IMG/VR virus record: IMGVR_UViG_3300029882_000002 | DNA: 64,000 bases | Source: a virus | Reading direction: 5' to 3' (one strand) | Shown: piece after piece, positions 22,764-56,342 of the stretch | How the letters are laid out: every line of letters starts with the position of its first letter | Position numbering within the stretch: the stretch's first letter is position 1 | Made by a program: the position numbers and the translations under genes | The notes under the pieces: model-generated | What the model was told of the DNA's origin: nothing | Seen by the model: only the letters and a program-made list of their open reading frames with translations | Database searches by the model: none

Positions 22764-23120
22764 CTATTTAGCGTTGATAATGCCAACCAATTTGTAGTAG
22801 CCATTGGTGTTACAGATAAACTGCAGATTTTTAATTTTTGACAGGTCCTTCATCAAATTATGGATTTCTAAGATTCCGCTAGGGTCCCAAGACGTACCTC
22901 TGAGGCCCGGAATACTGCTTTTACTAGCCTTCAAATAGATCGATATGACATTATCCGCTTCTTCACCATAACTAACTCCATCAATAATATGGTGCTTGGA
23001 GAATTCATGTTTCAAAAGTTCAGCAATTTCTGGATTTGAGGCCTCAAGTTGTGCAAAACCTGGATCGCGACTAATATCTGTTGCCACTAATCTTTGTGCT
23101 GCATTAACTTTGATGTTCAT
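22764..23120 (-). CDS. hypothetical protein carrying the N-terminal AAxRL tag
   Basis: 118 aa, begins MNIKVNAAQRLVATD. ATGA-coupled to the upstream gene. Confidence 0.65.
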   Translation of the reverse strand: MNIKVNAAQRLVATDISRDPGFAQLEASNPEIAELLKHEFSKHHIIDGVSYGEEADNVISIYLKASKSSIPGLRGTSWDPSGILEIHNLMKDLSKIKNLQFICNTNGYYKLVGIINAK

Positions 23121-24442
23121 TTGCTATCCTTTGATTGTTGATCAAGTTCCTCTTGTGCTTTGGTCCACGCAGCGTCAGGTATATCACCTGACTCAACGTA
23201 GTCAGCAATTGCATCAATCACTTTACCTACAAGTTCGTCGTCCAGTTTATCGCTAGTTTCGGCTGTAATCAGTCTTGAAGCAATGCTTAAGGTTAGTGAA
23301 CTATGGACACCATGTCGACTATTTTTGGTGCCTGGTCCACCTTGACGTTGACGGCGGTCTATTTCTTCGTCGCTTAATGTATCATATTCGTGTTTGGATA
23401 GCGGTACCCAATCGCCGTTTTTCCAATATCCATATTTATTTGCTTCAGCTTCTTCATCTGACCACCCTTTCTTTCTAGGCTTATCGTTTCCTAGTTTCTT
23501 AATGCTCGATCCAGCACCGACCACACCTTTCTTTACCAGACTATATATTGCCGGTGCACCCAAGTGCTTAACAGCCATGAAAGCTACTAGTCCAACACCA
23601 CCTGAGGCACCCAGTACACCAGCCATAGCTGCACTGCCTAGGATATTACCGACCATTGATGCAATCTTCTTTACATCGCCTTCCTGCGTCTTACCATTCA
23701 ATAGTCTGTGAGTTGCACCAATACCCGATAGTAGGCCTCCACCGTCCCTTATAATGCCTCTAATCAACCCTTTCTTCTTAGCCTCAGCTTTAACCTTGGA
23801 AGCTGCGGTTTTGCGTTGTGGACTACTTGGTTTCTTATCCTCTGGTGTTATTTTGGGTTTACTGCTTTTAGTAGGTGCTTTAACCGGCACCTTAGACTGG
23901 GGTTTTGGTTCAGGACTATCCACTCCTGACTTGTCCTTAGCTTCAGGTTTCCCTTTAGCTTTAGGTTCAGGAGCAGAATTGGGTTCAGGTTTCAACAAAT
24001 CTTTCTTATTCTGCTCAAATTTCTCTTGTTCGGTTTTGGGTGCGGGTGTGGCTGCGGGTTTCTGCTTCTGAGTTTCGCTTATTGATTTAGGCAACGTCTT
24101 CTGATCCCTGGTCACGGTCACCGGCTGATTACGATCAGTGGGTCTAGATTTGGGTTTATTGTCCTCAGATTTTATGTCATCCGCGTACTTGGAACCCGGA
24201 TGTTCCTCAACGTAGTCTTCTTGTTCTGGTTTTGAGAGCTTATCAAACCATTCTTCATTGAGTTTGTATTCTTTGTCGGGTTGAGGGTTATTGACCTTAT
24301 AGAATTTATTAGGCTGATTCTTTTTGACTGGCTTTTTAGTCTCTAACGGCTGAGGTCTAGTGCTCTGCATTTGAGCCTGCCCCGTAGGTGCTGCACTAAT
24401 AGTTTGGGTGCTCAATAATCGAAAAGCAGCGTTGAGTTTCAT
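23117..24442 (-). CDS. Lys/Pro-rich protein with Gly-rich hydrophobic segment; N-terminal AAxRL tag
   Basis: 441 aa, begins MKLNAAFRLLSTQ. Low-complexity K/P/E-rich middle, hydrophobic GNILGSAAMAGVLGASGGVGLVAFMAV segment. AGGAA RBS. Confidence 0.65.
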   Translation of the reverse strand: MKLNAAFRLLSTQTISAAPTGQAQMQSTRPQPLETKKPVKKNQPNKFYKVNNPQPDKEYKLNEEWFDKLSKPEQEDYVEEHPGSKYADDIKSEDNKPKSRPTDRNQPVTVTRDQKTLPKSISETQKQKPAATPAPKTEQEKFEQNKKDLLKPEPNSAPEPKAKGKPEAKDKSGVDSPEPKPQSKVPVKAPTKSSKPKITPEDKKPSSPQRKTAASKVKAEAKKKGLIRGIIRDGGGLLSGIGATHRLLNGKTQEGDVKKIASMVGNILGSAAMAGVLGASGGVGLVAFMAVKHLGAPAIYSLVKKGVVGAGSSIKKLGNDKPRKKGWSDEEAEANKYGYWKNGDWVPLSKHEYDTLSDEEIDRRQRQGGPGTKNSRHGVHSSLTLSIASRLITAETSDKLDDELVGKVIDAIADYVESGDIPDAAWTKAQEELDQQSKDSK

Positions 24443-24487
24443 TGTTGTTCCTGATCATAATTTGGTCCATAACTATTCGGCGCATAA

Positions 24488-25360
24488 TCAAATTTGTAGA
24501 TAGCTAAGAGACTTCGAAAAGTACATTAATTCTTTACCTTTTCTTAAGCTTGCATGCGCACTATACGCAAGGTCAATTTCATGCCCCGCCCCCGCACTGG
24601 CCTTATAGCATTCTTTTATCAAGGGGTGACTGTCATAGGACATAATCCAAGGAAGCTTTAATTTCTTCTGTACCCACGTAGCGAGTCTTCTATGGTCAGC
24701 CTCTTTATACGCATCTGTGTATAGACCCGGACCTTTCTCAACGTAAGGAGGGTCTAGATATACTAATGAATTCTTTGGTACTTGTGACTGTATACCAGAC
24801 ATAAAGTCCAAGGCATCTAAATTATAGATACCTATACGGGACTTGAGTTTCCCAATAGTCTGAATTCGTTTTATGAGTCCATCTTTGTTGTAACGAGCAT
24901 CTAATTTATATGTTCCAGCCTGTTGTTTTCCGCCGATAACACCAGCCTTTAGGATCCCAGATCTGTTCACCCTATTAAGAAAGAATGTAGCAAAACCTAG
25001 GTTTAGAAGAGGGGCTTTATTTCTGTTCAACCAAGTCTCACGTTGAAGATACCAAGTGTCCATGGTGCAAGGCACTGTTTCGATAAGAGAGCACAAAGCA
25101 TCTGGTTTACGAATACAGCTATACCAAAATGCATAAATCGCTCTATCGTAGTCGTTGAGATGAATCGCGCTAACTGAATCAGTCAGCAATAAGCCTAGTG
25201 CTAATCCGGCTCCGCCACAGAAAGGTTCTATGTAGTGCCCGCTCTTTAACTTATTGTTGGCTATTAGTTTTTGAAAATACGGGAGTAGTTGAGACTTCCC
25301 ACCGGGGTATCTTAAAGGTGTGTAATTAGTAATTTTCTTTCCTAGATTAGTCCACAACAT
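24488..25360 (-). CDS. D12-class N6-adenine DNA methyltransferase (Dam-like), intact
   Basis: RYPGGKSQLL, EPFCGGAGLAL (AdoMet-binding motif) and LDPPYVEKG (DPPY). Start placed at ATG 25360; the longest ORF begins at GTG 25390. Confidence 0.8.
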   Translation of the reverse strand: MLWTNLGKKITNYTPLRYPGGKSQLLPYFQKLIANNKLKSGHYIEPFCGGAGLALGLLLTDSVSAIHLNDYDRAIYAFWYSCIRKPDALCSLIETVPCTMDTWYLQRETWLNRNKAPLLNLGFATFFLNRVNRSGILKAGVIGGKQQAGTYKLDARYNKDGLIKRIQTIGKLKSRIGIYNLDALDFMSGIQSQVPKNSLVYLDPPYVEKGPGLYTDAYKEADHRRLATWVQKKLKLPWIMSYDSHPLIKECYKASAGAGHEIDLAYSAHASLRKGKELMYFSKSLSYLQI

Positions 25361-25441
25361 AGTTGGTTTACTGCATTCAAGTCGAAGCACTGAGCACTAA
25401 ACTATATTTACTATGTTGTGGAATAAGTCTAACAAAACATT

Positions 25442-25948: not shown

Positions 25949-25963
25949 AATACACCTCTAGGT

Positions 25964-26019: not shown

Positions 26020-26048
26020 TTAAAATAACAATAGGTTGATCAATCAAA

Positions 26049-26453
26049 TCAACCCAAAATTTGAATAACTGGATCCCAACCCTCTCTTAATTCTCGGACT
26101 CTGATCAAGCAGTCTTTACCTTTAAATAGATAAGAATTAGGTGGCTCCCCATGGGGTATAGGCTGGGCCTTGAAATCAAGCATTTGAACGGCCTTTAAAA
26201 GCTTCGCGAAATCGCAGTGACAACCTAAGCTAAAGTCCGCTTGGTTCAGGTGCACTCTTAGACCATGCATTTTCAATAACTGATTTAAGGCTATTGCTTT
26301 AACTCCACGGGTGCCTATGTCCGCTACATGCTGTGGATTCTGGCCCTTGAGCTGGTACTTAGGTTCTTCATGATAAGTAGCTAGTAATCGATGCCAGGCC
26401 TTAGACTTGATAACGACGCCTAGTCGTGGATTAACTGGAATTAAATTTTCCAT
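26049..26453 (-). CDS. hypothetical protein
   Basis: ORF 26049..26510 trimmed to ATG 26453 (MENLIPVNP), 7 nt after the upstream stop. Confidence 0.6.
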   Translation of the reverse strand: MENLIPVNPRLGVVIKSKAWHRLLATYHEEPKYQLKGQNPQHVADIGTRGVKAIALNQLLKMHGLRVHLNQADFSLGCHCDFAKLLKAVQMLDFKAQPIPHGEPPNSYLFKGKDCLIRVRELREGWDPVIQILG

Positions 26454-26460
26454 AAGTGTC

Positions 26461-27234
26461 TCAGCCCAATGGTTGTTGACCCATGTTAAAGAGTCGAGGA
26501 TCAGCATCACTTAAGACCTCGTGTTCTAAGACCTGCTCTCTAGTCATATTGGCTTCTTGATCCTCGTTCAAAACACCGGGCAACGATTCGTACATAAAGC
26601 CATCTGATTTAGAAGTCGATGGCGGACCGGCCTCTAATTGTTTTTGACCTTTCTTTTGCTTAGCATAGCTTTGGTTATCACCTTCTTCGCCAATCATTTG
26701 ATAGCCGTCAAATAAGCCTGGCATCCCATCTGTATCCACAGTCGAATTAGCAATCCTAGGTTTAACTTTAGATTTAACTTTAGATTTAAGTTTAAGTTCG
26801 GCCCTAGCTACTGGACGCTGCTTAGTATTAGGTCTACGCGTGGACTCTTCTAGTGCAGCGTTCTCCATGTCCATTGTTAGGGGGTCGTCCTCAGCACCGG
26901 ATTCAATACGAAACAAACGTAATGCAGCCTTAATCTTAAGATAGGCCTGGGCGTGGGCGTACTGAGCATCAGTTTGTTGGGTCGTCGGATTCTTGCTCAC
27001 TGGTGTAGAACTAGCTGTAGTGTCCGTGCCCGTGTCTTTAACTGCTGTTTTATCCATAGCTGATTTAGGGCTAGTGCTAGTGCTTTCTTTGTTCTCAGTC
27101 GTTTCCCTGGTATCTTGCTGATGCTCTAACTGCTTTTCGTTCTGGGACTTGAAATCTGTAGCTGGTGCTATTACGTCTGAATTCGACTCAGCAACTAGTC
27201 TGAATGCTGCCCTTACCTCGGTTTTAATTTGCAT
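26461..27234 (-). CDS. hypothetical protein with two copies of the AAxRL tag
   Basis: 257 aa. N-terminus MQIKTEVRAAFRLVAES and internal YLKIKAALRLFRIES (aa 98-112). S/T-rich linker between them. Confidence 0.65.
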   Translation of the reverse strand: MQIKTEVRAAFRLVAESNSDVIAPATDFKSQNEKQLEHQQDTRETTENKESTSTSPKSAMDKTAVKDTGTDTTASSTPVSKNPTTQQTDAQYAHAQAYLKIKAALRLFRIESGAEDDPLTMDMENAALEESTRRPNTKQRPVARAELKLKSKVKSKVKPRIANSTVDTDGMPGLFDGYQMIGEEGDNQSYAKQKKGQKQLEAGPPSTSKSDGFMYESLPGVLNEDQEANMTREQVLEHEVLSDADPRLFNMGQQPLG

Positions 27235-32910: not shown

Positions 32911-34002
32911 CTACACACGTAAACCTTTCGCGACGGATCTGCTGTTGGCGATAGACACGGCCAAACTTTCATACATCACCCATCCGCGACCCGGAATACG
33001 CTCAATAGAAATGTCGATAGGTTGCGATTGCAGGCCACCACGATCCGAGTAAGCACCGTGATTCAATGCATCGGCAATGACGAAGAACTCACCTTGGTTC
33101 AACACCTTATGTTCCGGATGACGATAAGCGTCCGAAGTAATCGTGCAACCATACATCACACCCAGTTCACCGGTCAGCAACAACTCGTGACGTGCAACCG
33201 GATCAATGGCGGCAAAGAAATCCGAATTACCGATGATGTCCTGATAGATATCGGTAGCGATCAGGACATGCGGTGCTTTCAGGCCCCAGCGCGTAACGTT
33301 CGTCATTACTTGAGCGAACGTGTAGGGCGTAAGCTGACCTGAGATAATCGACAGCGGATTATCAATACCTACGATCTGATTCACCTGGTTGTACCACAAG
33401 CGATCTTCACCCACCATGATTGCTTCGGTTGCTTCAACATACTTCTCTTGCAGAACGTCGCCAGCTGATTGGTTCAACTCGTTCATCGGAATAAACGGAC
33501 GAGTAACGACTTGCATTTCCGGCGGTGTAAACCATTTATCGCGAGTGATCTGCGACTGAATCTTGGTGGGGCTAGTCGAGTACACAGCCGTTACGTTTTT
33601 AGTACGCAAGGGGAACCGTGGGATAGCGCCTTGCTCGACGGTAATCTTCGTCAAGTACTTGCGCATAAAACCCTGACGATTTGCCGTGATATACAAAGAA
33701 TCGCTAATCTTTTCACCCAAGACACGATGGGCTTCTTTGTCGTTGAACGCTGCTTGCACTAGTTCGCGACTAAGCTTGACTTGTTGCTCTGCGCTAGCAA
33801 ATACACCATCAGCAGCCAAGGAACCATTCGAGGATGCAGCCAAGAACTTTTGTTGGCGGTTAATAAGGTCACGTTTATCCGATGCATTAATTTCACCGTT
33901 ACGACCAATTGCACGCTCACCTTCTTGCATGCCGTCGAAACGATACTCGGATGCTGCCACCATTGGCGTCTTCGACGCCCGAACCTGAACTTTTGTACGC
34001 AT
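32911..34002 (-). CDS. candidate major capsid protein
   Basis: 363 aa, GGAG RBS. Positioned after the protease, scaffold and a small structural gene. Size and composition fit an HK97-fold capsid protein. No database confirmation possible. Confidence 0.5.
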   Translation of the reverse strand: MRTKVQVRASKTPMVAASEYRFDGMQEGERAIGRNGEINASDKRDLINRQQKFLAASSNGSLAADGVFASAEQQVKLSRELVQAAFNDKEAHRVLGEKISDSLYITANRQGFMRKYLTKITVEQGAIPRFPLRTKNVTAVYSTSPTKIQSQITRDKWFTPPEMQVVTRPFIPMNELNQSAGDVLQEKYVEATEAIMVGEDRLWYNQVNQIVGIDNPLSIISGQLTPYTFAQVMTNVTRWGLKAPHVLIATDIYQDIIGNSDFFAAIDPVARHELLLTGELGVMYGCTITSDAYRHPEHKVLNQGEFFVIADALNHGAYSDRGGLQSQPIDISIERIPGRGWVMYESLAVSIANSRSVAKGLRV

Positions 34003-36879: not shown

Positions 36880-37785
36880 CTATAAAAACTGCTGAGGTTT
36901 TGAACTTCCAGGGACATCTAAATCTGCTTTTACTTCTGACGTCCAAGGATACTCAACCCAATCTGAAAGGGCTGACGCCCAAGCTGGATCCCGAACAATG
37001 GAACACTCTATCGGACTTATTCCGTGAGCATTCAAAAATGCTAAATGCGATGAGCCATCATAATCTTGATAGCGTTTCCAATTGACGTTGTCCGTACCTG
37101 AAGTATGTGAGCAACGTCTGTCCTTAGAGCAAACGGTTCCGCAATAACCGCAGGTAAAACTATCGACTAGAGCACCCATAGAATAAGTATTAATTGTTCC
37201 ATCTAAAACCTGTTGAGCAATGTCCGGATACTTATTTTTATCAATGCCTAAAAGACCCATCACTTTCCACAGTTTTCCATTCCCATAACCCTGGACTTTA
37301 TTGAAAGATGCGTCAAAGATAACTCCATGTGCCGTGGAGCAGTCCTCATTGGAATGTTCCTCATGGATCGGGCAACCTACCCAGGCCTTATAAGACAATC
37401 TGTTTATTGGTGGTGGTTGAAATCTTACTAATTCGGAACGCGGAAATGCAATGCCGTTTCGATTAGGAAGATCGGATGGACATATAATAGTCCGGACCAA
37501 TATGTAGTCTTCAATACGGGGCGAAATTTTGTAGACCGGAGCACAGAAGGGTAGCCATGTTGCGTAATCCAGTTCACTAATTCGCGCCATTTCTTTTTCA
37601 GCTTCAAACGTTTCGATTGATCGCTGAAGGTTATCTACTGAGTTGGTTTCTAACGTGCGTTCTAGAGGCACAGTATCGGCTGTAACTTGATGCTGGTATT
37701 TAGCAACACTAAGCTTTTGGTGGGCACTGACACTGACACTGGCACGGGCACTCAGAAATGATTTTGGTACCTGAAGGTTAGCCAT
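36880..37785 (-). CDS. putative prohead (maturation) serine protease
   Basis: 301 aa. LPNRNGIAFPRSEL ... GCPIHEEHSNED ... GKLWKVMGLLGIDKNKYPDIAQQVLDGTINTYSMG follows the HK97/T4 gp21-type prohead protease pattern (His in the ..EEH.. block, Ser in the ..YSMG.. block). Located upstream of the scaffold and capsid candidates. Confidence 0.5.
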   Translation of the reverse strand: MANLQVPKSFLSARASVSVSAHQKLSVAKYQHQVTADTVPLERTLETNSVDNLQRSIETFEAEKEMARISELDYATWLPFCAPVYKISPRIEDYILVRTIICPSDLPNRNGIAFPRSELVRFQPPPINRLSYKAWVGCPIHEEHSNEDCSTAHGVIFDASFNKVQGYGNGKLWKVMGLLGIDKNKYPDIAQQVLDGTINTYSMGALVDSFTCGYCGTVCSKDRRCSHTSGTDNVNWKRYQDYDGSSHLAFLNAHGISPIECSIVRDPAWASALSDWVEYPWTSEVKADLDVPGSSKPQQFL

Positions 37786-38200: not shown

Positions 38201-38698
38201 TTAGGGTTGTGGCGTAACTTCGGGTTCGATTGTTTGTGTTGATTGTTCTACAACCGGAATACTTTCTGTAGCTGGTGCTGCAACTTCAGTTACTGCCTCT
38301 GGCGTAGGTTCAGCAACAGTCTCAATCACTGGCGTCTGCTCTACAGCCGGTGCAACAACTTCGGTAACTACAGGTTCAGCAACGGGTGCTGAATCCGTAA
38401 TAGTTGATGCCTCAACAGCAGGGACTGGAGTTACCGGCGCTGCCGCAGGAGCCTCAACTTTAGGACCAGCAACTTGTGCACCAGCAGTAGTTTCTGCCTG
38501 CGGGTGGCCTGGAAAATCCTTGGTGATTGTCGAGGGATAAGCCAGACCATATTGAACCTGTTTCTTGGAAAGCCCAAGATGCAAATAAGCCCAGTCATAG
38601 AGTTCAAGCATATCTTTGTGCGCCAATTCCGCGCCCTCGGTAACCACGTGACCAGCCTCAGTCAATGCTGCTTTAATTTTTGAGATATTGAAACTCAT
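38201..38698 (-). CDS. hypothetical protein with P/A/V/E-rich C-terminal tail
   Basis: 165 aa, AGGAG RBS. The N-terminal ~60 aa are related to the N-terminus of the 45889..46377 product. Confidence 0.6.
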   Translation of the reverse strand: MSFNISKIKAALTEAGHVVTEGAELAHKDMLELYDWAYLHLGLSKKQVQYGLAYPSTITKDFPGHPQAETTAGAQVAGPKVEAPAAAPVTPVPAVEASTITDSAPVAEPVVTEVVAPAVEQTPVIETVAEPTPEAVTEVAAPATESIPVVEQSTQTIEPEVTPQP

Positions 38699-44676: not shown

Positions 44677-45126
44677 TTAACCCGCACTTTCAGTCAGACG
44701 TAAAGCGGCTTTGAGTTGCATGGGTGCAACGCCGTCACTAATCATTGCATCTTTGTCACCGTCAATTCCGGTCCCCACATCGTTGATGCCAACACCGTCA
44801 TTTAATGTTGAATCCTGCAATGCTTGCTGGCTAGTAGTTCCCGCTGGTGCCCCGTCATTTAACACCAAGTCTTCAACGCTAGTTGTGTTCGGATCGTACT
44901 CGCCGTCCAGCACTTCTTCGCTCTCTGTCTGGGGTGGTTGAACTATTTCAGCCACTACTTCTTGTTCAATTTCGTTGGTGTCGGCCAACATGGCATAAGC
45001 AATTGATTCTAAACTTTCATGATCAACACCAACGGACTCAGCCAGCGCGTGGAACTGAGCATCAGACGGTTCAGGATTGATCTGAAGAAACAAAGCAATT
45101 AGGCTTACAAGTTTTTGATTATCCAT
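44677..45126 (-). CDS. acidic protein ending in the AAxRL tag
   Basis: Start placed at ATG 45126 (longest ORF begins at GTG 45150). The C-terminus is ...PMQLKAALRLTESAG-stop. Confidence 0.6.
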   Translation of the reverse strand: MDNQKLVSLIALFLQINPEPSDAQFHALAESVGVDHESLESIAYAMLADTNEIEQEVVAEIVQPPQTESEEVLDGEYDPNTTSVEDLVLNDGAPAGTTSQQALQDSTLNDGVGINDVGTGIDGDKDAMISDGVAPMQLKAALRLTESAG

Positions 45127-45139
45127 GACAGGTTTCTCT

Positions 45140-45520
45140 CTATAGGGCACGCAATTGGGACAGGACTTCGTCTAGTCCAGGTACCTTTTTATTTACTTCC
45201 GTTGCTGCTTTTCCGATTGAAGCCAGTAAGCTTTGATCATCCGAGCCTTCGGCCTTTAATTCGTACTTGTATTTAGAGGCCTTGAAATAAAAGTTTAAGT
45301 CCTCATCAACCGTACTGAAGTTCAAGACCGCTTGATACTCGGAAGTGCGCCAGATCAAAGACTGGTTGGTAGACGATCTATCATCCAGCAGAAAATGAAT
45401 GCCTAGAATTCTTTTTAGAATGGTCAGCACGTTTTCCACGTCCTCGGGACCTGCCTCTATGTTGGTGCCTTTCTCATCGGCGTCTGCCAATAGGCGTAGG
45501 GCTGCTGTGATCATGGTCAT
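45140..45520 (-). CDS. hypothetical protein with N-terminal AAxRL tag
   Basis: 126 aa, begins MTMITAALRLLADAD. AAAGG RBS. Confidence 0.65.
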   Translation of the reverse strand: MTMITAALRLLADADEKGTNIEAGPEDVENVLTILKRILGIHFLLDDRSSTNQSLIWRTSEYQAVLNFSTVDEDLNFYFKASKYKYELKAEGSDDQSLLASIGKAATEVNKKVPGLDEVLSQLRAL

Positions 45521-45888: not shown

Positions 45889-46377
45889 TTACGATAGAAT
45901 AGCCGGAGCCGTAGCGGAAATTGCGGGCACCTGGTTACCGCCAACAGTCGGGACCACCGAAGCTGTAAACGTACCGGCCGCACTATAGGTATAAGTCAGG
46001 TGAGGTACTGTGGTAACCTGCGGGGATGAACCGTCACCCAGGTGCCAAGAATACGAAGTACCTGTAGCTCCGGTCTCGGTCAGGGTCCATGTAACAGGTG
46101 TAGATGCATGGGCACCAGTCAATGGAGTACCGGCCAACGTTGCATGATAGTCATCGATCTCTACAGCGTCCAACACGGATACAGGCATGATCGATGGATA
46201 AGCAAACCCGTAATTAGTTTGATACTTGCTGTATGCAACACCACCTTTGTAGGTAGCAGCTGCAGCGAACTTATCGTAGGATGCTTGGTCAATTCCTTCC
46301 CAATTGGAGCCAGCGCTGGTTGGTAGTCCAGCAGCAACCAAGGCCGCTTTAGCATTCGTGTAATTTACAGTAGTCAT
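45889..46377 (-). CDS. PKD-domain protein
   Basis: Start placed at ATG 46377 (GAGG RBS). C-terminal YSWHLGDGSSPQVTTVPHLTYTYSAAGTFTASVV matches the PKD/Ig-like fold signature. Confidence 0.6.
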   Translation of the reverse strand: MTTVNYTNAKAALVAAGLPTSAGSNWEGIDQASYDKFAAAATYKGGVAYSKYQTNYGFAYPSIMPVSVLDAVEIDDYHATLAGTPLTGAHASTPVTWTLTETGATGTSYSWHLGDGSSPQVTTVPHLTYTYSAAGTFTASVVPTVGGNQVPAISATAPAILS

Positions 46378-46385
46378 TGTTAGCC

Positions 46386-46733
46386 TCAAATGGAAAAGAA
46401 AATTCTTAACGCTACCTGCACGCGCTGCAAGCATACGCCGTCGTTACCCTTAACCGCGAACGAAACCCTTTTGAATATTCCAGGGCTTGCATTCATGGCG
46501 TACTTTAAACGGTTCAAAACTTCAACAGAGGCTTCGGCCTCACGTCCAACATCCTCTGGATTGCTCTTGTGGAACATCAAATGTGGGTGTACGAATTTAT
46601 AAATTAAGCCGTGCTTGCGCAACTCGGCCTGTATTTTACGAAGCTCATCACCTTTACCTTCGTGAATTTGAGCCTCTACTTTTTGTTCTTCATCTTCTAT
46701 AGCTTTCAGTCTCTGAGCTGCATGCACGTACAT
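46386..46733 (-). CDS. hypothetical protein with N-terminal AAxRL tag
   Basis: 115 aa, begins MYVHAAQRLKAIEDE. AAGGA RBS. Confidence 0.65.
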   Translation of the reverse strand: MYVHAAQRLKAIEDEEQKVEAQIHEGKGDELRKIQAELRKHGLIYKFVHPHLMFHKSNPEDVGREAEASVEVLNRLKYAMNASPGIFKRVSFAVKGNDGVCLQRVQVALRIFFSI

Positions 46734-47293: not shown

Positions 47294-47590
47294 TTAGTGC
47301 CAGTAACTTAAGTTCAGGTTTCCACCGTGGACCCCAATAGAGATTTCATGATTGGCTTTGGTGTACGTGTCCAGGCCGTCAACTTCGGATGCCTTCTTTG
47401 CGTAGCTAAAACCTGCGATCTCTAAGTTATGAATAAAACGTGCGGCCTTTTCATAAGCATCTTTAGGTGAACTGCATCTGAAAATATTGGTGCCCAGTTT
47501 AAGTTTGAACCCACCTTCTTTTTCTAGGTCCTCACCGGCATAAACCGTAGTAGTTGAGGCCAGTATTCGCTGACGTGCATTTGTTTTCAT
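47294..47590 (-). CDS. hypothetical protein with N-terminal tag variant
   Basis: 98 aa, begins MKTNARQRILASTT. Confidence 0.6.
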   Translation of the reverse strand: MKTNARQRILASTTTVYAGEDLEKEGGFKLKLGTNIFRCSSPKDAYEKAARFIHNLEIAGFSYAKKASEVDGLDTYTKANHEISIGVHGGNLNLSYWH

Positions 47591-47593
47591 AGT

Positions 47594-49126
47594 TTAAATT
47601 CCACGATTTCCAAAGTATCCTGGAGCATAAGCTCCCCACATTGAGGCCTGCGTAATCGTAATTCCTACGGCACCGATTGCTCCGTGTTGAAGTTGACCAG
47701 CGTTGACCGATCCATCACCTGAAGTATTTCCCTTGATAATAAGATTGGTTTTGATCAGCTTCAATTCGTTATCTAATCGGGTTTGAATAGCAGTTGCAGC
47801 AGCCTCTAAATATTGAGTTCTATCTACGTCTAAACTAATTGCTGCACCTTGAAAATTAAAGGATTTCTCAGCCTCCGAAAGATAAGCACTGGCTAAGGCG
47901 GCAGCTTCACTGCATAGTAACCAAAATTCACGAATACCACCCAGTGCATTTGTGAACGTGAAATTAGTAAACTGTCCATAAGCGATATTGAATGCGTCAC
48001 CACCACGGCGTAGCCAGGTTAAAATAGTTGAAGCAGGGAACAACATATCAGGTGTTCCATAAAGCGTAGTCCGTGCCTTATTAATCTTGGCTTTAACGTC
48101 ATTGACCGCACTCATGATCGACGGATTAACAACAAAGAAATCAGCATTTTCCTGATTGATGATTCCCGTATTAGTTGATGCCCAGTATTTCCAAATTATT
48201 TGGTAGGGAACTAGGGATACGCCTAATCCCGAGGTATCTAATACACCAGCAAAGTACCAACCATTAGCAGTTCTTTCATAGGCTTGAATCTGGGTCGGGG
48301 CCACTACTTGAGTGGGTCCAGCCCATAATTCGACTGTCACATTATCATATAGCGTGTCCAACACAATTGAAACAGTAGCTGGTACACCCTGGAGCTCGAC
48401 TGATGGTTGGGTACCCAATGGAACTGTGTTCAACCCCACCACCCGAACGTTCTCGAATTGAAAAAATACGTTCTGGCCTAGGTTCCCTGCTGTGGGATCA
48501 GGTGGTGTTCCATACTCTTGACTTAGACTTAGCGTATATCTTAATTGATAGGCTTGTCCATCTAATGATGGTGGGACTGTAACGGGCACCGTAATAATAG
48601 ATTTGGCAACTACAGTATTGGCCAACCCATTTGATTGCACAGTGTAGTCGAAAGCATTACCTGCGGCATAAACAGTACCGTCTGAGGCTAGAAATTCCCA
48701 GGTAACAAAACCACCGGAAGGGTCTATTTGCGGGGGAAACGCAAATACGGATGTTCCGACGGCTGCTTTACCGGCTTCTATTTCGTCTACTAAGTCTTGG
48801 AACGCATCTGGATTTTCAGTGGTGTAAGGAATAAATTCTGCTTGTGAAACTGATGTGGCGACAGTGACGATGAATACACGAGCATTAGTAGTAATTGTTA
48901 ACTGAAAGCCATAACTAAGTCCGTCATTGCCGCCCGTAATCGTTAATCCAATTACCGAGCTAGTGCCTGTCGTGACTGTTGCTGACAAAGGAGTGCTAGT
49001 GACGGGACTGGCTGTACCTACAACGATGCTGGTGATTGTCTCAGCCCCAATCAACATTGAGGTTACATCAGCAATAACGGCTATATCTGTTGTTGGTGTC
49101 TTAAAATAAACATAAGGTACGGCCAT
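47594..49126 (-). CDS. hypothetical protein, probably a virion structural component
   Basis: 510 aa, AAGGA RBS. Beta-rich T/V/G composition typical of structural proteins. No diagnostic motif. Confidence 0.6.
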   Translation of the reverse strand: MAVPYVYFKTPTTDIAVIADVTSMLIGAETITSIVVGTASPVTSTPLSATVTTGTSSVIGLTITGGNDGLSYGFQLTITTNARVFIVTVATSVSQAEFIPYTTENPDAFQDLVDEIEAGKAAVGTSVFAFPPQIDPSGGFVTWEFLASDGTVYAAGNAFDYTVQSNGLANTVVAKSIITVPVTVPPSLDGQAYQLRYTLSLSQEYGTPPDPTAGNLGQNVFFQFENVRVVGLNTVPLGTQPSVELQGVPATVSIVLDTLYDNVTVELWAGPTQVVAPTQIQAYERTANGWYFAGVLDTSGLGVSLVPYQIIWKYWASTNTGIINQENADFFVVNPSIMSAVNDVKAKINKARTTLYGTPDMLFPASTILTWLRRGGDAFNIAYGQFTNFTFTNALGGIREFWLLCSEAAALASAYLSEAEKSFNFQGAAISLDVDRTQYLEAAATAIQTRLDNELKLIKTNLIIKGNTSGDGSVNAGQLQHGAIGAVGITITQASMWGAYAPGYFGNRGI

Positions 49127-49129: not shown

Positions 49130-49900
49130 TTATCCTTGAACGGGTGTACTTGGGAGCATTATATTATTGACGCCCATACCTGTTCGTGTAGGGTGGTCCC
49201 CAAACAAATCAGGCTCTGAATTTAAATCCTCTGTCGTGGTACCGAACCCAGGTTCGTCAACTAGTTTGGCACTAACTGAAGAACCGAGGTCCTTTAAGTC
49301 TTCAAAACTAAAAGAGGTTCCCAGCATCAAAAGTCGTATCAAATGTGACTTAGCTATTCTTTCTCTAGTCTTTGGTGACAATATTTCGAGACCCATCAGG
49401 TCAATAAGATATGTAGGGAACACTGAAGCTAGGTTCCTCCACAACAGGTTGGCGGCTCTAGAATGTGAGTCACCGGTCATCAGACAATTACCGGCTTCAA
49501 GAAACCATGAATAGATACTTGATACTATTTTCTGCTTCTGATGATCGGGATTAATCTCAGCATGAGGCGTGTATAGCTTGTTGCCCAGGGCACTTTTCAA
49601 CTCCATGGTTTTACCATTGAACTGTGTGGCACCAATGCTATTAAAAGTCACCAACCCCACTAAAGAATCTTGAGGATAAGCATCAAGTAAATCGTCATGG
49701 ATAAAAATATAGAAACTATAATTAAAGCTAGCTACGGTCAGCCAAATATTAGGTCTATCTGTTTCGACTATCCGTAATTCACCTTTCGCCTGAACCCTTA
49801 GCCATTCTTTGATAACAGCATCATGATCGTAATTAGGGCCTTCAAATGTACGGAGGGCCAGCAGTCTTGATGCTGCATAAACTTTAGTTAAGCCTTCCAT
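49130..49900 (-). CDS. hypothetical protein with N-terminal AAxRL tag
   Basis: 256 aa, begins MEGLTKVYAASRLLALRT. Confidence 0.65.
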   Translation of the reverse strand: MEGLTKVYAASRLLALRTFEGPNYDHDAVIKEWLRVQAKGELRIVETDRPNIWLTVASFNYSFYIFIHDDLLDAYPQDSLVGLVTFNSIGATQFNGKTMELKSALGNKLYTPHAEINPDHQKQKIVSSIYSWFLEAGNCLMTGDSHSRAANLLWRNLASVFPTYLIDLMGLEILSPKTRERIAKSHLIRLLMLGTSFSFEDLKDLGSSVSAKLVDEPGFGTTTEDLNSEPDLFGDHPTRTGMGVNNIMLPSTPVQG

Positions 49901-49920: not shown

Positions 49921-51204
49921 TTAGAACTGCAATAGTTTAGCTATCTGGAGGCCCGTGAATCCAAATTTGGAACCCAAAACCTCAGCGTCATGAGGAATGA
50001 CCGCCGATTTAATACCCGAGGTTAGAGGTTCAAACGATATGAATTTCGCACCAATCTTCACTCTAAGTTTTACGACCGGACTATTGGCAAACAAACGTTT
50101 GACCTCAAGATAAAGCGGATACTTAATTTCGTCTATCTGTTCGACAGTAGTATTCGCTTTGAGTCTAAAAGATATACATTTAGCATCAACGTCAACTTTC
50201 TTTATATAATCACAGTAGTTAAACATAGAAGCACTGAACTTGGAAGGATCATTCTTCATTCTGGTAGACAGTGGAATAGCAGCTAGGCTAGTACTGAAGT
50301 TCTCTTGTTCCAAAAGTTTGTCTATCACCACTAAGGCTTCGTTCAATGAACTAACCTCGGAACCGCCATCAACTAGTAACAGATTGGGTAAGTCAAATTC
50401 ATGATTAACCTGAATTTGAATTCCTTGGTTCACAGTCCATTGAAGGCTGATGTAGAGATGGGGCGTTACCTGTAGGTCATCATTCTTTACGTTCTTTAGC
50501 AAGATGTAATCCGTAAAGATTAGGGCTCCGTCTTTGACACTGACGTACAAAAACTGTTCCTTGTGCTCGAATATAACGTGCTCTTGAAGCTCTTGGACTA
50601 ATGTCGATACGTAGCTCTGAAACACTTTAGGTACGTAGTGTGAGGCCACGCTGCTCAAGAATTCTAAAACGTTTTTTAACTGAAAGCCAATCTTGTCCTT
50701 CAGTGCTTTTAACAGTCCGTAGGCCTTCGTGTAAGGCTCGCCCCGCTTATCCGTGAACTGTATAGCCAACTGCGTTTCTAGGGCCTCTAAAGCCCTGTAT
50801 TTCTCGTACAAGTCTTCTGACAATACATATTGCGTATTCAGCTGTTCAATTTTGGGAACCAAGGTCTTCAAGGACTCATGATCAGGATCAGTTTGAGTCT
50901 CGCCGTCTAGACTCAAGCCGCTGGCCTTAACTAGGCAGGGATGAGTGTGGATTTGTGCCTGATTTAATTTTGCTAGTTGTTGCTGCTGGACTCCACTTAG
51001 CTGACTTAATTCTTTAACCGTGCTTCCCGTCTGGTCAAGAAATCGAGCAACATCGTCAATATATCGGAACTTAGGTAGCTCCAAGGCACAAATACGAGCA
51101 GCTGCCTTGACTTGAGTTCTTGGTTTATTTTTTGACGTTTTAACGTTACCTGTTTTATCTTTAGTCGTGCTTGCTTTCAATCTCTGGGCTGCATTGGTAG
51201 CCAT
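49921..51204 (-). CDS. hypothetical protein with two tag copies
   Basis: Start placed at ATG 51204 (AAGGA 5 nt upstream; longest ORF starts at 51210). Begins MATNAAQRLKAS, with a second copy QVKAAARICALEL about 30 aa in. Confidence 0.65.
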   Translation of the reverse strand: MATNAAQRLKASTTKDKTGNVKTSKNKPRTQVKAAARICALELPKFRYIDDVARFLDQTGSTVKELSQLSGVQQQQLAKLNQAQIHTHPCLVKASGLSLDGETQTDPDHESLKTLVPKIEQLNTQYVLSEDLYEKYRALEALETQLAIQFTDKRGEPYTKAYGLLKALKDKIGFQLKNVLEFLSSVASHYVPKVFQSYVSTLVQELQEHVIFEHKEQFLYVSVKDGALIFTDYILLKNVKNDDLQVTPHLYISLQWTVNQGIQIQVNHEFDLPNLLLVDGGSEVSSLNEALVVIDKLLEQENFSTSLAAIPLSTRMKNDPSKFSASMFNYCDYIKKVDVDAKCISFRLKANTTVEQIDEIKYPLYLEVKRLFANSPVVKLRVKIGAKFISFEPLTSGIKSAVIPHDAEVLGSKFGFTGLQIAKLLQF

Positions 51205-52996: not shown

Positions 52997-53001
52997 AATG
53001 G

Positions 53002-53352
53002 TTACTGCAAATTCTGAACTTTCGGAACAGCCATATCCAGTATTTGGACTGCTAGGTCAGTCAGTTCTTTATTCGACTTGCATAGATGGTGCTCGCTATG
53101 GAACACACCATTTATTTTCCGGTCAACATACAGCTCTTGGTTGACCGTTACCTTGAAAATGAAGGATCGTTTGGGATTAACAATAGTTAGGCTACGTCCA
53201 GCGTAAATACGTTCCCAACCTTTAGGTAGCTCGTAGACCCCAACACTTTCTTTGATAGCTAGCCATGCGTCATTGGTTGTGAACACACGATTCTTGTGGA
53301 ACACATGATCGGTATTGCCCTGGGGATTTGGATTGGAATTCATGTTTTTCAT
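53002..53352 (-). CDS. hypothetical protein
   Basis: 116-aa ORF. ATG abuts the upstream stop (TAAATG). Confidence 0.6.
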   Translation of the reverse strand: MKNMNSNPNPQGNTDHVFHKNRVFTTNDAWLAIKESVGVYELPKGWERIYAGRSLTIVNPKRSFIFKVTVNQELYVDRKINGVFHSEHHLCKSNKELTDLAVQILDMAVPKVQNLQ

Positions 53353-53814
53353 TTAGTACATCAAAAGGCTAGTTCTAATACCACGTTTGTTGAGCAACGC
53401 CAAACCTTTGTTGTCTCTATAGTAATCGGCAAAGACAACCTCGGCAATACCTGTTCTTTGAATTAGTTTCGCGCACTCAATACAGGGTGCGTGCGTACAA
53501 TAAAGCGTGGCACCAACAGCGCTTACCGTAGATGCTGCTAACTTTGCACAAGCATTCATTTCAGCGTGACTGACCTCATCGTTGGTCTTCAAACCGAAAT
53601 GCATTACATAGCTGTTACCTACATCGGATCCTGACAGTACCGAATGTTCACATGTATTGTCGTAACCCTGGGGCATGCCGTTCCAACCATAGGACACCAC
53701 AGAGTCATCCTTCACAATTACGCAGCCTACTTGAAGTCGTTGAGCATGACTTCGTTCGGCTGCACGTTTAGCAAAGTCCATGTACATTTTGTCATCGTCT
53801 AGAGGCTGAGTCAT
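53353..53814 (-). CDS. dCMP deaminase
   Basis: Zinc-binding motifs VSHAEMNA and HAPCIECAKLI. 153 aa. Confidence 0.85.
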   Translation of the reverse strand: MTQPLDDDKMYMDFAKRAAERSHAQRLQVGCVIVKDDSVVSYGWNGMPQGYDNTCEHSVLSGSDVGNSYVMHFGLKTNDEVSHAEMNACAKLAASTVSAVGATLYCTHAPCIECAKLIQRTGIAEVVFADYYRDNKGLALLNKRGIRTSLLMY

Positions 53815-53847
53815 TATTGTATTTAGTTGTTGTATGAACCCTATTTA

Positions 53848-54423
53848 CTAGCGGATCGAAAGTTCGGAGTTAACCAATCTGGATGCTGCATTGACTTTGA
53901 CACCCGTGCTTAAATTCTGTGCTCTACGTTTCAAGGCTTGCTCCAACACGAATTGCACATGTGGATCATCCAGTACCGCTTTAAGTCCTGGATGCATTGG
54001 CTGAGGCCATTGATTGAAAGCTGTCCAAATAGCAGCCGTCGATTCTGACCTGAATTCTGATTCTGGGTTGACTACGAACTGCTTGGGGACAGTAACAAAA
54101 TAAGTGTGGTACTCAAAGCCTTTTCCATTTCTGGATACCTTGAGCGGCATTACAGACCACTCACCGTTATAGCCGGTCTCTTCTCTGAGTTCCCGGCGTA
54201 GGGCATTGACCAAGTCTTCTGCGCCGTCAACGGAGCCACCCCACGTTCCGTAGCAATTCGGTGTATCAGAATGAGGACCACGTAGCTGGAAACTAAAGTT
54301 ACCGGTGTCTAGGGCCAGTACTAAGGCTCCGACTGCTTGGTGATATCCTCTGATGCCGGGTCCCCAATTCTCTTTATCCTTAGACGCCTCTATAGCAATA
54401 AGTCGTGACGCTGCTTTTATCAT
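53848..54423 (-). CDS. Nudix hydrolase flanked by AAxRL tags at both termini
   Basis: Nudix box GGSVDGAEDLVNALRRELREETGY (G-x5-E-x7-REUxEExGU). Start placed at ATG 54423, 1 nt after the upstream stop, giving MIKAASRLIAIEAS. The C-terminus is GVKVNAASRLVNSELSIR-stop. Confidence 0.8.
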   Translation of the reverse strand: MIKAASRLIAIEASKDKENWGPGIRGYHQAVGALVLALDTGNFSFQLRGPHSDTPNCYGTWGGSVDGAEDLVNALRRELREETGYNGEWSVMPLKVSRNGKGFEYHTYFVTVPKQFVVNPESEFRSESTAAIWTAFNQWPQPMHPGLKAVLDDPHVQFVLEQALKRRAQNLSTGVKVNAASRLVNSELSIR

Positions 54424-54424
54424 T

Positions 54425-55873
54425 TTATAGTCCACTGTCAGTTCGAAAATTAGAAAAGGCCCACACATCTGAGTCGTCGTGCTCGTCGTCATACAGTTCA
54501 CGATTTGCATGGGCTAGGGGCGTCCAATCGCTGTAGACCGCAGCAATAGGCCCAAGGAAGGGCGAAGCGATGTTTAACACGAATTCAAATGGTAGGTCCT
54601 CTGGTTCGCAATAACCTTGATTAGGATTGTCCAGCATCCAAACAATAGCACCTAACATTGAACCCACTACCTGCAATGTTGTTGCGTTTTGCCCTTCTAC
54701 CAGTTCCCGTGATTCTTCGATAGAAAGTTGCGATCCGTACCACAGGGCATTCCGTTCATGACCTAGAAGCAAGACCCCTAGTTCATCGATTCCGCTCTGA
54801 ATACTATTTTTAGCAATTCGGGTCTTTCTGTGCATCCACAATTCTTGTCCCTTCATTTCATGGACAGACGCAATTGCAGCATCACACGGTTGATACGCAT
54901 AGTAACAGGTCGGTCGATAATTCTCTGTACTAAAGTATTCGCTGATAGTGATGGCTTCCGAGTGCTGAATCAAATAGCCGTTGAATGTACCGCCCAAAGG
55001 TACCCACGACTTAACCGTGGTCTCCACACCCGGTTGCTCTAGATAGAGCACAGAGCCACCAGCGAGTTCTTTACCGTCAGCAGGAATCTCTTTTTCGTGC
55101 GTGCCCCACCCCATTTCTGCTGGTGCTCGACCCTCAGCCCAGAACCCTTCACAGCTCCAGGTGTTGACGAATTCATTAACACGCTTGGGTTCTTTCAGAA
55201 TTTGTGTATCGCGCTCAGCCGTTTGAATTATTTTCACATTCAGGGCTTCAGCTAGCATTCCCCATTGCTCTTGGGACTCAGGGGTCCCTGTTTTCAGACC
55301 TGTATCTTTTGCGAGTTTGAGCAACGCCGCTTTAACAAAATGCGAAACTAGACCTGGATTAGCTCCATGCGTCACCACACAGGTAGAGGCCCCAGGATAG
55401 GCCGAGGCCATTCTTCGCATTTCTTGATGCGTTGTGTAGAGCGTGCGTTCACCCAGTTCCGGAATGATTTCGTCGGGTTCAGTAGCCCAACGTTCGATAG
55501 ACGTGTCAATGTAGAGCACATTATTTTGTAGGCACCACTCAACGATTTCTAGTCCGTCTATGTTCAAGCTTACGTTAATCAGTAAGTCACCGGGACTCAA
55601 TAATTCATTTAGTGTTGGCACCAAATTAGATTTGACGATTTCACGATGAACGTAAGTTACACCCAAATCTTCGTATTTAGCAAATTCAGGGCGTACCTCT
55701 TTATCCAGAACGACTACCGCGCTAGGACTTACATCGAGGTGACGTAGAATTACGGGGAGAATCGATTGACCAACACCACCGAAGCCTAGGACCAGGATAT
55801 GTCCTCTGTGAGTTGCTAGTTTTTCGTGTTGATCCTCCAGCAGTCGTTGTGCAGCGTGTATTTGAACCTTCAT
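54425..55873 (-). CDS. homospermidine synthase-like NAD-dependent enzyme with N-terminal AAxRL tag
   Basis: Rossmann motif LGFGGVGQS near the N-terminus, plus HGANPGLVSHFVK and WSCEGF...PAEMGWGTHE blocks, as I recall them from bacterial homospermidine synthases. Start placed at ATG 55873 (AAGGA RBS), giving MKVQIHAAQRLLEDQ. Confidence 0.65.
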   Translation of the reverse strand: MKVQIHAAQRLLEDQHEKLATHRGHILVLGFGGVGQSILPVILRHLDVSPSAVVVLDKEVRPEFAKYEDLGVTYVHREIVKSNLVPTLNELLSPGDLLINVSLNIDGLEIVEWCLQNNVLYIDTSIERWATEPDEIIPELGERTLYTTHQEMRRMASAYPGASTCVVTHGANPGLVSHFVKAALLKLAKDTGLKTGTPESQEQWGMLAEALNVKIIQTAERDTQILKEPKRVNEFVNTWSCEGFWAEGRAPAEMGWGTHEKEIPADGKELAGGSVLYLEQPGVETTVKSWVPLGGTFNGYLIQHSEAITISEYFSTENYRPTCYYAYQPCDAAIASVHEMKGQELWMHRKTRIAKNSIQSGIDELGVLLLGHERNALWYGSQLSIEESRELVEGQNATTLQVVGSMLGAIVWMLDNPNQGYCEPEDLPFEFVLNIASPFLGPIAAVYSDWTPLAHANRELYDDEHDDSDVWAFSNFRTDSGL

Positions 55874-55904
55874 ATCAATCCTTTTAAGCACTTTCACTTT
55901 CAGC

Positions 55905-56342
55905 TCACGCAACGCTGATAATTTTTGTTTTATTTCCTATGTCCTCTAATTCTACTTCGTGCTCACCTTTACTGAAATGATTGACCTCGGCGGACCTAGC
56001 CTTTGCCCAGTCGTTTGCATAAAGCTTGGCCTCAACGTCTTTTAACGGCGCGTCAACGATCACGAAGTCCTCGTTGTCCGGACGTTCATACGCATACTGC
56101 AGTGTATTTACCCAACCCTCGAAAGCATCTGCTTCCATCTTGGAGACCGCGACTAGGCGTAAGGCTGCTTCAACTTTAGTGCTACCTGTCATTTTGTGAT
56201 AAATATAATTAGTCAAAGCATAGGGCTCTTTCTTGCCGCTGCTTTTCTTGGCCTTATCCTCAGCGTCCTTCCATTTATGTTCAAGACTTTTCTTGCTACC
56301 TTTGCCTTGTTTTACGTCATGTTTAATTATGTTATTGGGCAT
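55905..56342 (-). CDS. hypothetical protein with Lys-rich N-terminus and internal AAxRL tag
   Basis: Start placed at ATG 56342 (GGAG RBS). The tag TKVEAALRLVAV is encoded at 56145-56180. Confidence 0.6.
   Translation of the reverse strand: MPNNIIKHDVKQGKGSKKSLEHKWKDAEDKAKKSSGKKEPYALTNYIYHKMTGSTKVEAALRLVAVSKMEADAFEGWVNTLQYAYERPDNEDFVIVDAPLKDVEAKLYANDWAKARSAEVNHFSKGEHEVELEDIGNKTKIISVA

Follow-up and report, generated by a model that had tools for sequence, protein, structure and literature searches.

Several described systems use short peptides to address otherwise unrelated proteins to a shell or an injection machine. In phage T4, the capsid-targeting sequence (CTS) is a leader of about 10 residues (MKTYQEFIAE) that begins at Met1 of the internal proteins IPI, IPII and IPIII, which are non-homologous, evolve fast and are encoded near head genes; it is removed by the prohead protease gp21. 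The phiKZ-like jumbo myophages (phiKZ, 201phi2-1 and SPN3US) have removable N-terminal regions that are cleaved at S/A/G-x-Glu, and they package and eject enzymes. Encapsulins and microcompartments rely on short, modular, transferable and position-tolerant terminal peptides that send unrelated enzymes to a protein shell, which has the HK97 fold in encapsulins, and the contractile injection systems PVC and AFP load unrelated payloads into a phage-tail-like machine through N-terminal leaders. Here we analyse a peptide tag, with the 11-residue core form M-K-L-N-A-A-x-R-L-L-A, that occurs 15 times on 12 proteins in a 64,000-nucleotide stretch of viral DNA, IMG/VR record IMGVR_UViG_3300029882_000002 (the window, meaning the whole stretch). 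The copies had been listed in an earlier, sequence-only reading of this DNA, and each translates from the minus strand as it was written there (Table 1).

The tag resembles the T4 CTS in being a leader of about ten residues at Met1 of non-homologous, fast-evolving proteins near head genes, in a large myophage that encodes a prohead protease and a putative scaffold alongside. Unlike the CTS, it is found at internal and C-terminal sites too, some proteins have two copies, and its carriers include metabolic enzymes and products of tail-side genes. The consensus has only Met-Lys in common with MKTYQEFIAE, the window protease is not a recognisable gp21 (S77) member and no cleavage site at a fixed position closes the tag. 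In function the tag is closest to the T4 CTS, yet it is not a member of that family. The propeptides of phiKZ-type phages have, to our knowledge, only the cleavage motif in common and no shared leader; here, in contrast, the leader is strongly conserved and no clear cleavage motif stands at a fixed place behind most tags. Encapsulin peptides of the LTVGSLKG type are C-terminal and rich in Gly and Ser, whereas the tag has another consensus and is mostly N-terminal, and the shell would be a phage capsid encoded with portal, sheath and tube genes. That shell is a DNA-filled phage head; the head of the related phage phiRSL1 is of the T=27 type according to the literature. There are no encapsulin or microcompartment shell genes among the annotated genes. 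The microcompartment peptide is an amphipathic helix of about 18 residues, whereas the hydrophobic moment of the tag does not exceed that of shuffled sequences. The PVC and AFP leaders are comparable in being N-terminal on unrelated payloads, and some tagged genes adjoin sheath, tube and baseplate genes; however, those leaders have about 50 residues, are disordered, lack a consensus and require an AAA+ ATPase; nothing of this kind was seen for the tag. A Sec or Tat signal peptide, which would have a hydrophobic core of 10 or more residues and, for Tat, a twin-arginine motif, was considered and rejected, because the tag has a single Arg with polar and acidic residues behind it. Literature searches found no paper describing the motif, in agreement with the earlier remark that the consensus was not recognised from any described system.

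A peptide signal under purifying selection

Statistics were calculated on a curated set of 84 window proteins (19,531 amino acids), the residues of which were shuffled within each protein in 5000 trials. The pattern AA.RL is found 13 times in minus-strand coding frames, compared with 0.52 expected and a shuffle maximum of 5; plus-strand genes contain none, and a non-coding plus frame contains one (at 41837). For the wider pattern A[AR].R[LI] the figures are 15 observed and 1.3 expected. A position matrix derived from the window copies gave 15 matches at 28-40 bits, the next best scoring 11 bits. The Arg lies within the first 12 residues in 10 of the 15 copies, although such positions make up 5% of all. 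The shuffles rule out chance or composition as the origin of the motif, and neither shuffled nor plus-strand proteins contain it at a comparable frequency. Most ATG codons of N-terminal tags have an AAGG, AGGA or GGA motif 8-12 nt upstream; no ribosome-binding motif precedes the N-terminal tag of C3 (C1 to C12 denote the tagged proteins, or carriers). The position of the upstream ribosome-binding motif makes 51204 (MATNAAQRL) the most likely start of C9, not 51210. For the Nudix hydrolase C10, a separate gene call in a public protein collection gives an identical 191-aa product with the start MIKAAS.

The codons used at the conserved positions are diverse: Arg is encoded by AGA, CGA, CGT or CGC, and the Leu/Ile position by seven codons. 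The mean pairwise nucleotide identity of the copies is 50% over 33 nt, and third positions of shared codons are 35% identical, which rules out a DNA repeat, gene conversion or a start-region cassette. Since synonymous codons vary between copies, selection acts on the peptide and not on the DNA, and the description of the motif as a peptide-level repeat is correct. With the tags masked, no pair of carriers has BLASTP similarity (best pair C1 and C7, E = 0.46). The remainder of each carrier is thus unrelated to the others, as had been claimed, and paralogy was rejected as an explanation.

The opposite view, that the motif is no functional signal and reflects chance, low complexity, a DNA repeat at start codons or descent within a paralogous family, retains a negligible probability and is effectively refuted. 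It could appeal to the E-value of C1 and C7, as small carriers could be distant paralogues, to a common helix that follows the tag in C4-like proteins of relatives, and to the frequency of Lys at position 2 across bacterial genes. Against it stand the excess over expectation and the diverse codons, the presence of the tag on a Nudix enzyme, an enzyme of the saccharopine-dehydrogenase fold and unrelated proteins, its conservation in orthologues over 12 genomes, and the internal and C-terminal copies.

Table 1. Positions in the window of the tag copies and of the virion genes discussed in the text
Feature	Position	Strand	Remarks
C1 N-terminal tag MNIKVNAAQRLVA	23082..23120	-	carrier 22764-23120, 118 aa, no known family; AAGGA upstream
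C2 N-terminal tag MKLNAAFRLLS	24410..24442	-	carrier 23117-24442, 441 aa; weak homologue BcepSauron gp075, also tagged
C3 N-terminal tag MQIKTEVRAAFRLVAE	27187..27234	-	carrier 26461-27234, 257 aa, between sheath and tube genes
C3 internal tag KIKAALRLFRI	26905..26937	-	followed by conserved EDDPLTMDM
C4 N-terminal tag MTMITAALRLLAD	45482..45520	-	carrier 45140-45520, 126 aa; orthologue phiRSL1 ORF124, MAYDITAAVSRLAG
C5 C-terminal tag MQLKAALRLTESAG-stop	44680..44721	-	carrier 44677-45150, 157 aa
C6 N-terminal tag MYVHAAQRLKAIE	46695..46733	-	carrier 46386-46733, 115 aa; tagged orthologues phiRSL1 ORF120 and BcepSauron gp091
C7 N-terminal tag MKTNARQRILAST	47552..47590	-	carrier 47294-47590, 98 aa, immediately downstream of portal gene
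C8 N-terminal tag MEGLTKVYAASRLLALRT	49847..49900	-	carrier 49130-49900, 256 aa, immediately upstream of portal gene
C9 N-terminal tag MATNAAQRLKAS	51169..51204	-	carrier 49921-51204, about 427 aa
C9 second tag QVKAAARICALEL	51076..51114	-	last residue is the Glu before LPKFRY, conserved in orthologues
C10 N-terminal tag MIKAASRLIAIEAS	54382..54423	-	Nudix hydrolase 53848-54423, 191 aa
C10 C-terminal tag GVKVNAASRLVNSELSIR-stop	53851..53904	-	retained in closest homologue P0122
C11 N-terminal tag MKVQIHAAQRLLEDQ	55829..55873	-	homospermidine-synthase-like enzyme 54425-55873, 482 aa
C12 internal tag TKVEAALRLVAV	56145..56180	-	carrier 55905-56360, 151 aa
Possible degenerate copy VIKSKAWHRLLAT	26376..26414	-	in ORF 26049-26510; 11 bits; no adjacent start codon
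Major capsid protein	32911..34002	-	untagged; conserved N-terminal segment closing in A-A-S-E ahead of YRF
Acidic scaffold-like protein, 547 aa	34909..36552	-	20% Asp+Glu, no Walker A; candidate docking partner of the basic tag
Prohead maturation protease, candidate processing enzyme	36880..37785	-	untagged; PHROG 18299 match and predicted fold
Portal protein	47594..49126	-	untagged; tagged gene on either side

The window comes from a jumbo myophage that is kin to Ralstonia phage phiRSL1 and Burkholderia phage BcepSauron. The protein earlier picked out as the capsid candidate is 77-82% identical to annotated major head proteins (82% for BcepSauron and BcepSaruman, 77% for phiRSL1), with 73% for Burkholderia phage BCSR5 and 61% for Achromobacter phage Motura. 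All five are jumbo myophages of 220-265 kb, and the gene order of the window agrees with phiRSL1 ORF107-ORF161. To follow the tag in relatives, portal genes were taken from 13 IMG/VR contigs together with 10 kb of each flank (L numbers below denote loci). The window-derived position matrix was too strict on relatives, and an iterated hidden Markov model (HMM) seeded solely with window copies was used instead. It finds the tag in every phiRSL1-like locus, nearly always on the coding strand, and yields 76 non-redundant copies from 12 genomes. Before de-duplication a script rule placed 68 copies as N-terminal, 9 as internal and 6 as C-terminal. Counted from the closest Met upstream, the Arg most often lies at a distance of exactly 7, and the family consensus M-K-[IL]-[NQE]-A-A-x-R-L-[L/K/T]-A-[S/T] (Met1...Arg8-Leu9...) usually forms the first 11-12 residues. 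A strict DNA-pattern scan of IMG/VR gave 3 loci, which are probably relatives judging by their tag content. In PaBG, a more distant relative, the 30 kb surrounding the portal gene contain no tag. The phiRSL1-like clade as a whole is characterised by the tag.

Orthologous proteins retain it, a point on which the sequence-only reading had made its proposal depend. The Nudix orthologues phiRSL1 ORF109 (MKINSAFRLL) and BcepSauron gp099 (MEAAYRLL) are tagged; a Nudix homologue search returned 6 proteins, all from relatives and all tagged, and in an alignment of eight Nudix orthologues the Arg and Leu of the tag are invariant, as are residues of the Nudix domain. The C6 orthologues phiRSL1 ORF120 (MLKNAVHRLRATA) and BcepSauron gp091 (MFAVEAAKRLLATA) carry it too, as does the phiRSL1 orthologue of C4, for which no homologue was found in BcepSauron. 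Both tags of C3 are kept in the likely orthologue of L019. Further tagged proteins are phiRSL1 ORF111, 123, 127 and 133 and BcepSauron gp075 and gp077; the 21-kb locus L005 has at least ten tagged open reading frames (ORFs), and in L020 there are six in a 5-kb stretch, of which two resemble homospermidine synthase and Nudix hydrolase by their N-terminal sequence. The place of the tag can shift between orthologues. The C12 tag is C-terminal in the shorter orthologue BcepSauron gp098 and in the probable L005 orthologue, and that of C5 is C-terminal in BcepSauron gp090. For C5 itself, the earlier assignment as a C-terminal copy holds as to its position at the stop codon; however, a Met stands at the canonical distance from the Arg, with no ribosome-binding motif, and the copy is internal in the phiRSL1 orthologue, ORF125. 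Given this conservation, the unrelated carriers and the restriction to virion-side genes described below, the tag is a peptide signal under purifying selection at the protein level, and the part of the original proposal that saw in it a phage-specific tag stands.

The tags of one genome resemble each other more than those of other genomes. Identity at variable positions is 0.27 within and 0.19 between genomes, a difference that none of 2000 label permutations reached (p < 0.0005), and dialects are recognisable: Motura and L014 use E-I-Q-A-A, L007 and L012 use K-L-N-A-A, and L005 uses K-L-E-A-A. Such dialects without similarity of the DNA argue for coevolution with a common trans-acting partner and not for gene conversion. 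They also bear on the notion that the tag is a degradation or regulation signal, recognised by a host or phage AAA+ protease of the ClpXP type or by another regulator that times protein abundance. A short, Met-anchored N-terminal motif with basic and hydrophobic residues would suit such a signal, and ClpX is said to recognise N-terminal classes that the tag loosely resembles. However, a host-directed signal is not expected to form genome dialects over phages of different hosts, and restriction to the virion block and the functional-looking internal and C-terminal copies fit it poorly. No Clp-type gene was noticed in the window, where a systematic family scan of all ORFs was not made. We regard a degron as very improbable.

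The tag behaves as a module. In an AlphaFold2 model of the Nudix carrier the core is confident, whereas residues 1-26 and most of 174-191 have a predicted local distance difference test score (pLDDT) below 50, and short helices are modelled at 2-9 and 177-187; the low values at both ends place the tags outside the fold. The conserved body of the C9 proteins begins with LPKFRY, and 0, 1 or 2 tags precede this same start. One or two are present in the window and in L005-L009. The orthologues of phiRSL1, BcepSauron, BCSR5 and L012 have short untagged leaders, and those of Motura and L014 begin M-E-LPKFRY with no leader. The homospermidine synthase of the window has a tag, and so, apparently, do those of L006 and L020, which are probable homologues by N-terminal sequence only.

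Tagged genes and the virion-gene block

Two patches of the window, at 22.7-27.3 kb and 44.6-56.4 kb, contain 23 genes in all, of which 12 carry the tag. It is absent from the 14 core genes that separate these patches (sheath to SNF2), from the 14 genes at 56.4-64 kb and from all 29 plus-strand genes. Both the two-patch clustering on the virion side and the absence from plus-strand proteins had been noted before and hold on this count. BcepSauron was also scanned, over 20-262 kb (242 of 262 kb). There the tags lie solely in virion-gene clusters, which extends the virion-side enrichment beyond the window: gp075, gp077 (two copies), gp090, gp091, gp093 (two copies), gp098 and gp099 in the head/sheath block, gp253 adjoining the baseplate block, and gp276, tagged at both ends, among the tail-fibre genes. 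No tag was found in the replication, nucleotide-metabolism or small-ORF regions within 20-262 kb. Within the block, conservation is lowest in the carriers: for several, no homologue was detected in phiRSL1, BcepSauron or Motura, and the rest are 24-64% identical, compared with 42-82% for capsid, portal, sheath, tube and protease and 36-48% for the scaffold-like and SNF2-domain proteins. Fast evolution of this kind is the pattern of the T4 internal proteins.

This distribution is where a partner other than the capsid interior has to be weighed. The tag could dock to an assembly chaperone, serve loading of the tail lumen as in contractile injection systems, or bind another phage structure. The dialects indicate a common coevolving partner without identifying which, tagged genes lie by sheath and tube (C3, C2 and C1), by the baseplate block (gp253) and among tail-fibre genes (gp276), and the tag appears to work at either end of a protein. 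However, most tagged genes are near portal, protease, scaffold and capsid genes, the lumen of a myophage tube is normally occupied by the tape-measure protein, and no AAA+ loader was found. The 547-aa protein at 34909-36552 was considered for that role, being labelled 'ATPase' in PHROGs and in RefSeq (phiRSL1 and Motura), and was rejected: it is acidic, of low complexity and scaffold-like. The label is unsupported because there is no Walker A motif, and it is probably an annotation error; from its composition the protein looks like a scaffolding protein, as the sequence-only reading had suggested for this very acidic product. Overall, we consider docking outside the capsid interior unlikely.

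The minus-strand block comprises genes for sheath, tube, capsid, a 'virion structural protein', the scaffold-like protein, the maturation protease, an SNF2-domain protein and the portal. The earlier protease candidate is supported by a match to PHROG 18299, 'head maturation protease' (E = 8e-83), and by a predicted prohead-protease fold. Its AlphaFold2 model has a mean pLDDT of 72 (core 85-97); among predicted structures of viral proteins it matches some that bear the labels prohead serine protease, COG3740 head maturation protease and DUF2213. His144 (H-L-E-H-D) and Ser202 (Y-S-M-G) are invariant in the alignment, in contexts that we take to resemble HK97-type motifs. Sequence searches and fold searches of the PDB gave no match by which the enzyme could be shown to be of the T4 gp21 type (S77). 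Its fold neighbours include proteins of uncultured phages whose annotation combines a domain like that of prohead proteases with Nudix or Dps/ferritin domains; these predicted fusions hint that in other phages enzymes are delivered into capsids by fusion. A protease sequence identical to that of the window is on record on a 230,175-bp metagenomic contig, and public metagenomes contain 323 homologues of the protease family at E <= 0.001, a large part of them from contigs 200-260 kb long.

Two of the carriers are recognisable enzymes, the Nudix hydrolase C10 and C11, which has both saccharopine-dehydrogenase domains and is 58% identical to the phiRSL1 homospermidine synthase. Activity of the phiRSL1 enzyme has been demonstrated (PMC9992855). 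The cluster at 53353-56360 (the small, Lys-rich C12, homospermidine synthase, Nudix hydrolase and a dCMP deaminase) is syntenic with phiRSL1 ORF109-113 in rearranged order; BcepSauron has no homospermidine synthase.

Several other features of the block were noted. The 1552-aa SNF2-domain protein (38743-43401) lies in the middle of the head genes, is untagged and is kept in all relatives at 37-48% identity; its position matches that of a 1969-aa 'helicase' adjoining the PaBG portal gene, and it is a candidate for an enzyme carried in the particle. The ORF at 24488-25390 (300 aa), which separates C2 from the tube gene, contains R-Y-P-G-G-K-S, which we take to resemble a motif of Dam-type adenine methyltransferases. 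It is probably an insertion, because phiRSL1, BcepSauron and Motura have no homologue. C2 itself has a Gly-rich, hydrophobic stretch of low complexity. The motif W-W-D-x-L ... Y-L-K-x-H-P-x-S-K-Y, found near residue 65 in C2, is conserved just past the tag in many tagged proteins (relatives in L009, L012 and L020, and BcepSauron gp075). The C2 family might be an ejection or membrane-active protein. C3, phiRSL1 ORF141, BcepSauron gp077 and the L019 protein share the C-terminal end D-P-R-L-W/F-N-M-x-x-Q-P-x-G, kept in all relatives, whereas the remainder of this family is of low complexity and highly variable length (117-343 aa).

A 16th tag copy, at 26376-26414, was dropped for its weak score and the lack of a start codon beside it; 23258-23290 and 46389-46421 are further possible degenerate copies. 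The latter is the C-terminus of the C6 family, which is conserved as ...(A)LRIFFS and partly tag-like (window VQVALRIFFSI, BcepSauron KDLRIFFSA, phiRSL1 DVRLFFFIP, L005 NLRIFYSK). Two look-alikes named in the sequence-only reading, SKIKAALTEAG (38698) and TNAKAALVAAG (46377), are not tags and belong to another conserved N-terminal motif, h-x-x-h-K-x-A-L-x-x-A-G-h-x-V-S (SKIKAALTEAGHVVTEG, TNAKAALVAAGLPTS), on the proteins 38201-38698 and 45889-46434. This second motif is conserved in phiRSL1 ORF130 and ORF121, BcepSauron gp087 and an L005 ORF, and the two window proteins may be paralogous to each other.

In several relatives a small ORF that closes with a C-terminal tag has its stop codon directly against the start codon of the portal gene: L002 33403-33777 (BcepSauron gp093), L005 9758-9958, L007 about 7255-7602 and L008 about 9740-10000. 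In BcepSauron and L005 this ORF is in the same frame as the portal gene. Window C8 stops at ...STPVQG, exactly where the L007 ORF goes on with VKLNAALRLLKTED. The portal-abutting ORFs may represent read-through, gene fission or a functional C-terminal tag.

A possible leader for virion loading

The reading that we favour, and on which our judgement is evenly balanced, is that the tag is a virion-loading leader comparable to the T4 CTS and is possibly cleaved off by the prohead protease. The tag is basic (Lys2 and Arg8), and as a helix-prone peptide it would dock to one common phage-encoded partner during particle assembly. We infer, as the most economical model, that this partner belongs to the assembling particle; the most likely candidate would be the acidic scaffold or core of the prohead, which would complement the basic tag. 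The tagged proteins, among them the Nudix hydrolase, homospermidine synthase and the fast-evolving small proteins, would be co-assembled into the particle and delivered to the next host with the DNA, as are the T4 internal proteins and Alt or the ejection proteins of phiKZ and SPN3US. The prohead protease may afterwards remove the leader, perhaps after a Glu downstream of the tag. Consistent with this model, the prohead protease and the acidic scaffold-like protein are encoded in the same block.

A number of observations weigh against virion loading. The homospermidine synthase of phiRSL1 (ORF110) and some C9 orthologues are untagged, so the tag is dispensable for those proteins. No residue is conserved at a fixed distance past the tag, where acidic residues reach 20-25% at +7 to +11 compared with a background of 11%. 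The hydrophobic moment of the tag is 0.42 as against 0.34 ± 0.16 in shuffles, and an amphipathic helix is therefore not demonstrated. Some tagged genes adjoin tail, baseplate and tail-fibre genes (C1-C3; BcepSauron gp253 and gp276). The protease has no Pfam, NCBIfam or PDB-sequence match and Foldseek found none in the PDB; since it is of HK97 type only by predicted fold, its Glu specificity is a guess. In the accessible literature we found no virion proteome or N-terminal data for the phiRSL1-like clade. On the side of packaging, the abstract of Yamada et al. 2010 (Virology 398:135) reportedly lists at least 25 virion proteins of phiRSL1, including a topoisomerase IB recognised by N-terminal sequencing. 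Provided that this holds, phages of the clade do package enzymes, although the phiRSL1 topoisomerase IB as annotated is untagged.

The residues behind the tag also bear on a purely proteolytic role. In every C9 orthologue a Glu (Asp in L012) precedes the conserved start, in the forms A-L-E, T-L-E, S-M-E and G-V-E; the capsid protein has a conserved A-[ST]-E ahead of its conserved body; and behind the tags of phiRSL1 there is usually [AT]-x-E or T-E, similar to the A-A-T-E of the capsid protein. The C9 and capsid boundaries may be taken as leads for Glu-specific cleavage, nothing more. A T4-type Glu cleavage site closing the tag was rejected, there being no Glu at a fixed position. On a processing-only explanation, the tag would be a propeptide recognition element for the prohead protease or another phage protease, with carriers inactive or unassembled until maturation and no addressing role. 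The protease gene in the block and the Glu-containing boundaries would suit this, and internal copies could be cleavage junctions, as BcepSauron gp093 and window C3 and C9 are tagged between segments. However, no cleavage motif follows at a fixed distance, trimming 10 residues off a Nudix hydrolase or homospermidine synthase has no obvious regulatory logic, and C-terminal copies 5-10 residues before the stop codon would release a tiny peptide. The prohead proteases of T4 and HK97 act inside proheads, so the substrates would still need to get there. We judge a role in processing alone distinctly unlikely.

A broader form of the virion-loading model can be proposed more tentatively, at somewhat less than even confidence. 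It describes a general, position-tolerant cargo system, in which any protein bearing one or two tags, be they N-terminal, internal or C-terminal, would be recruited into the virion via one coevolving receptor, and a changing repertoire of effectors and enzymes would be co-injected.

The phiRSL1-like clade is abundant in soil and water metagenomes (>300 protease homologues). From the 323 homologues in environmental data it follows that phiRSL1-like jumbo phages are common there, whereas isolates number about five. Should the tag be a virion-loading leader, the proteins that are packaged, and probably injected, could be listed from sequence alone for this whole jumbo-phage clade. Homospermidine synthase and the Nudix hydrolase would then travel with the genome, which would change how their role in infection or counter-defence is read. 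The motif is apparently undescribed, while the concept of a cargo leader already has precedents; the T4 capsid-targeting idea would come to cover internal and C-terminal sites as well as a jumbo-phage lineage that is not related to T4. The 11-residue core would offer a minimal, transferable handle for loading foreign proteins into a jumbo-phage particle, and the genome dialects are a natural experiment for mapping the receptor.

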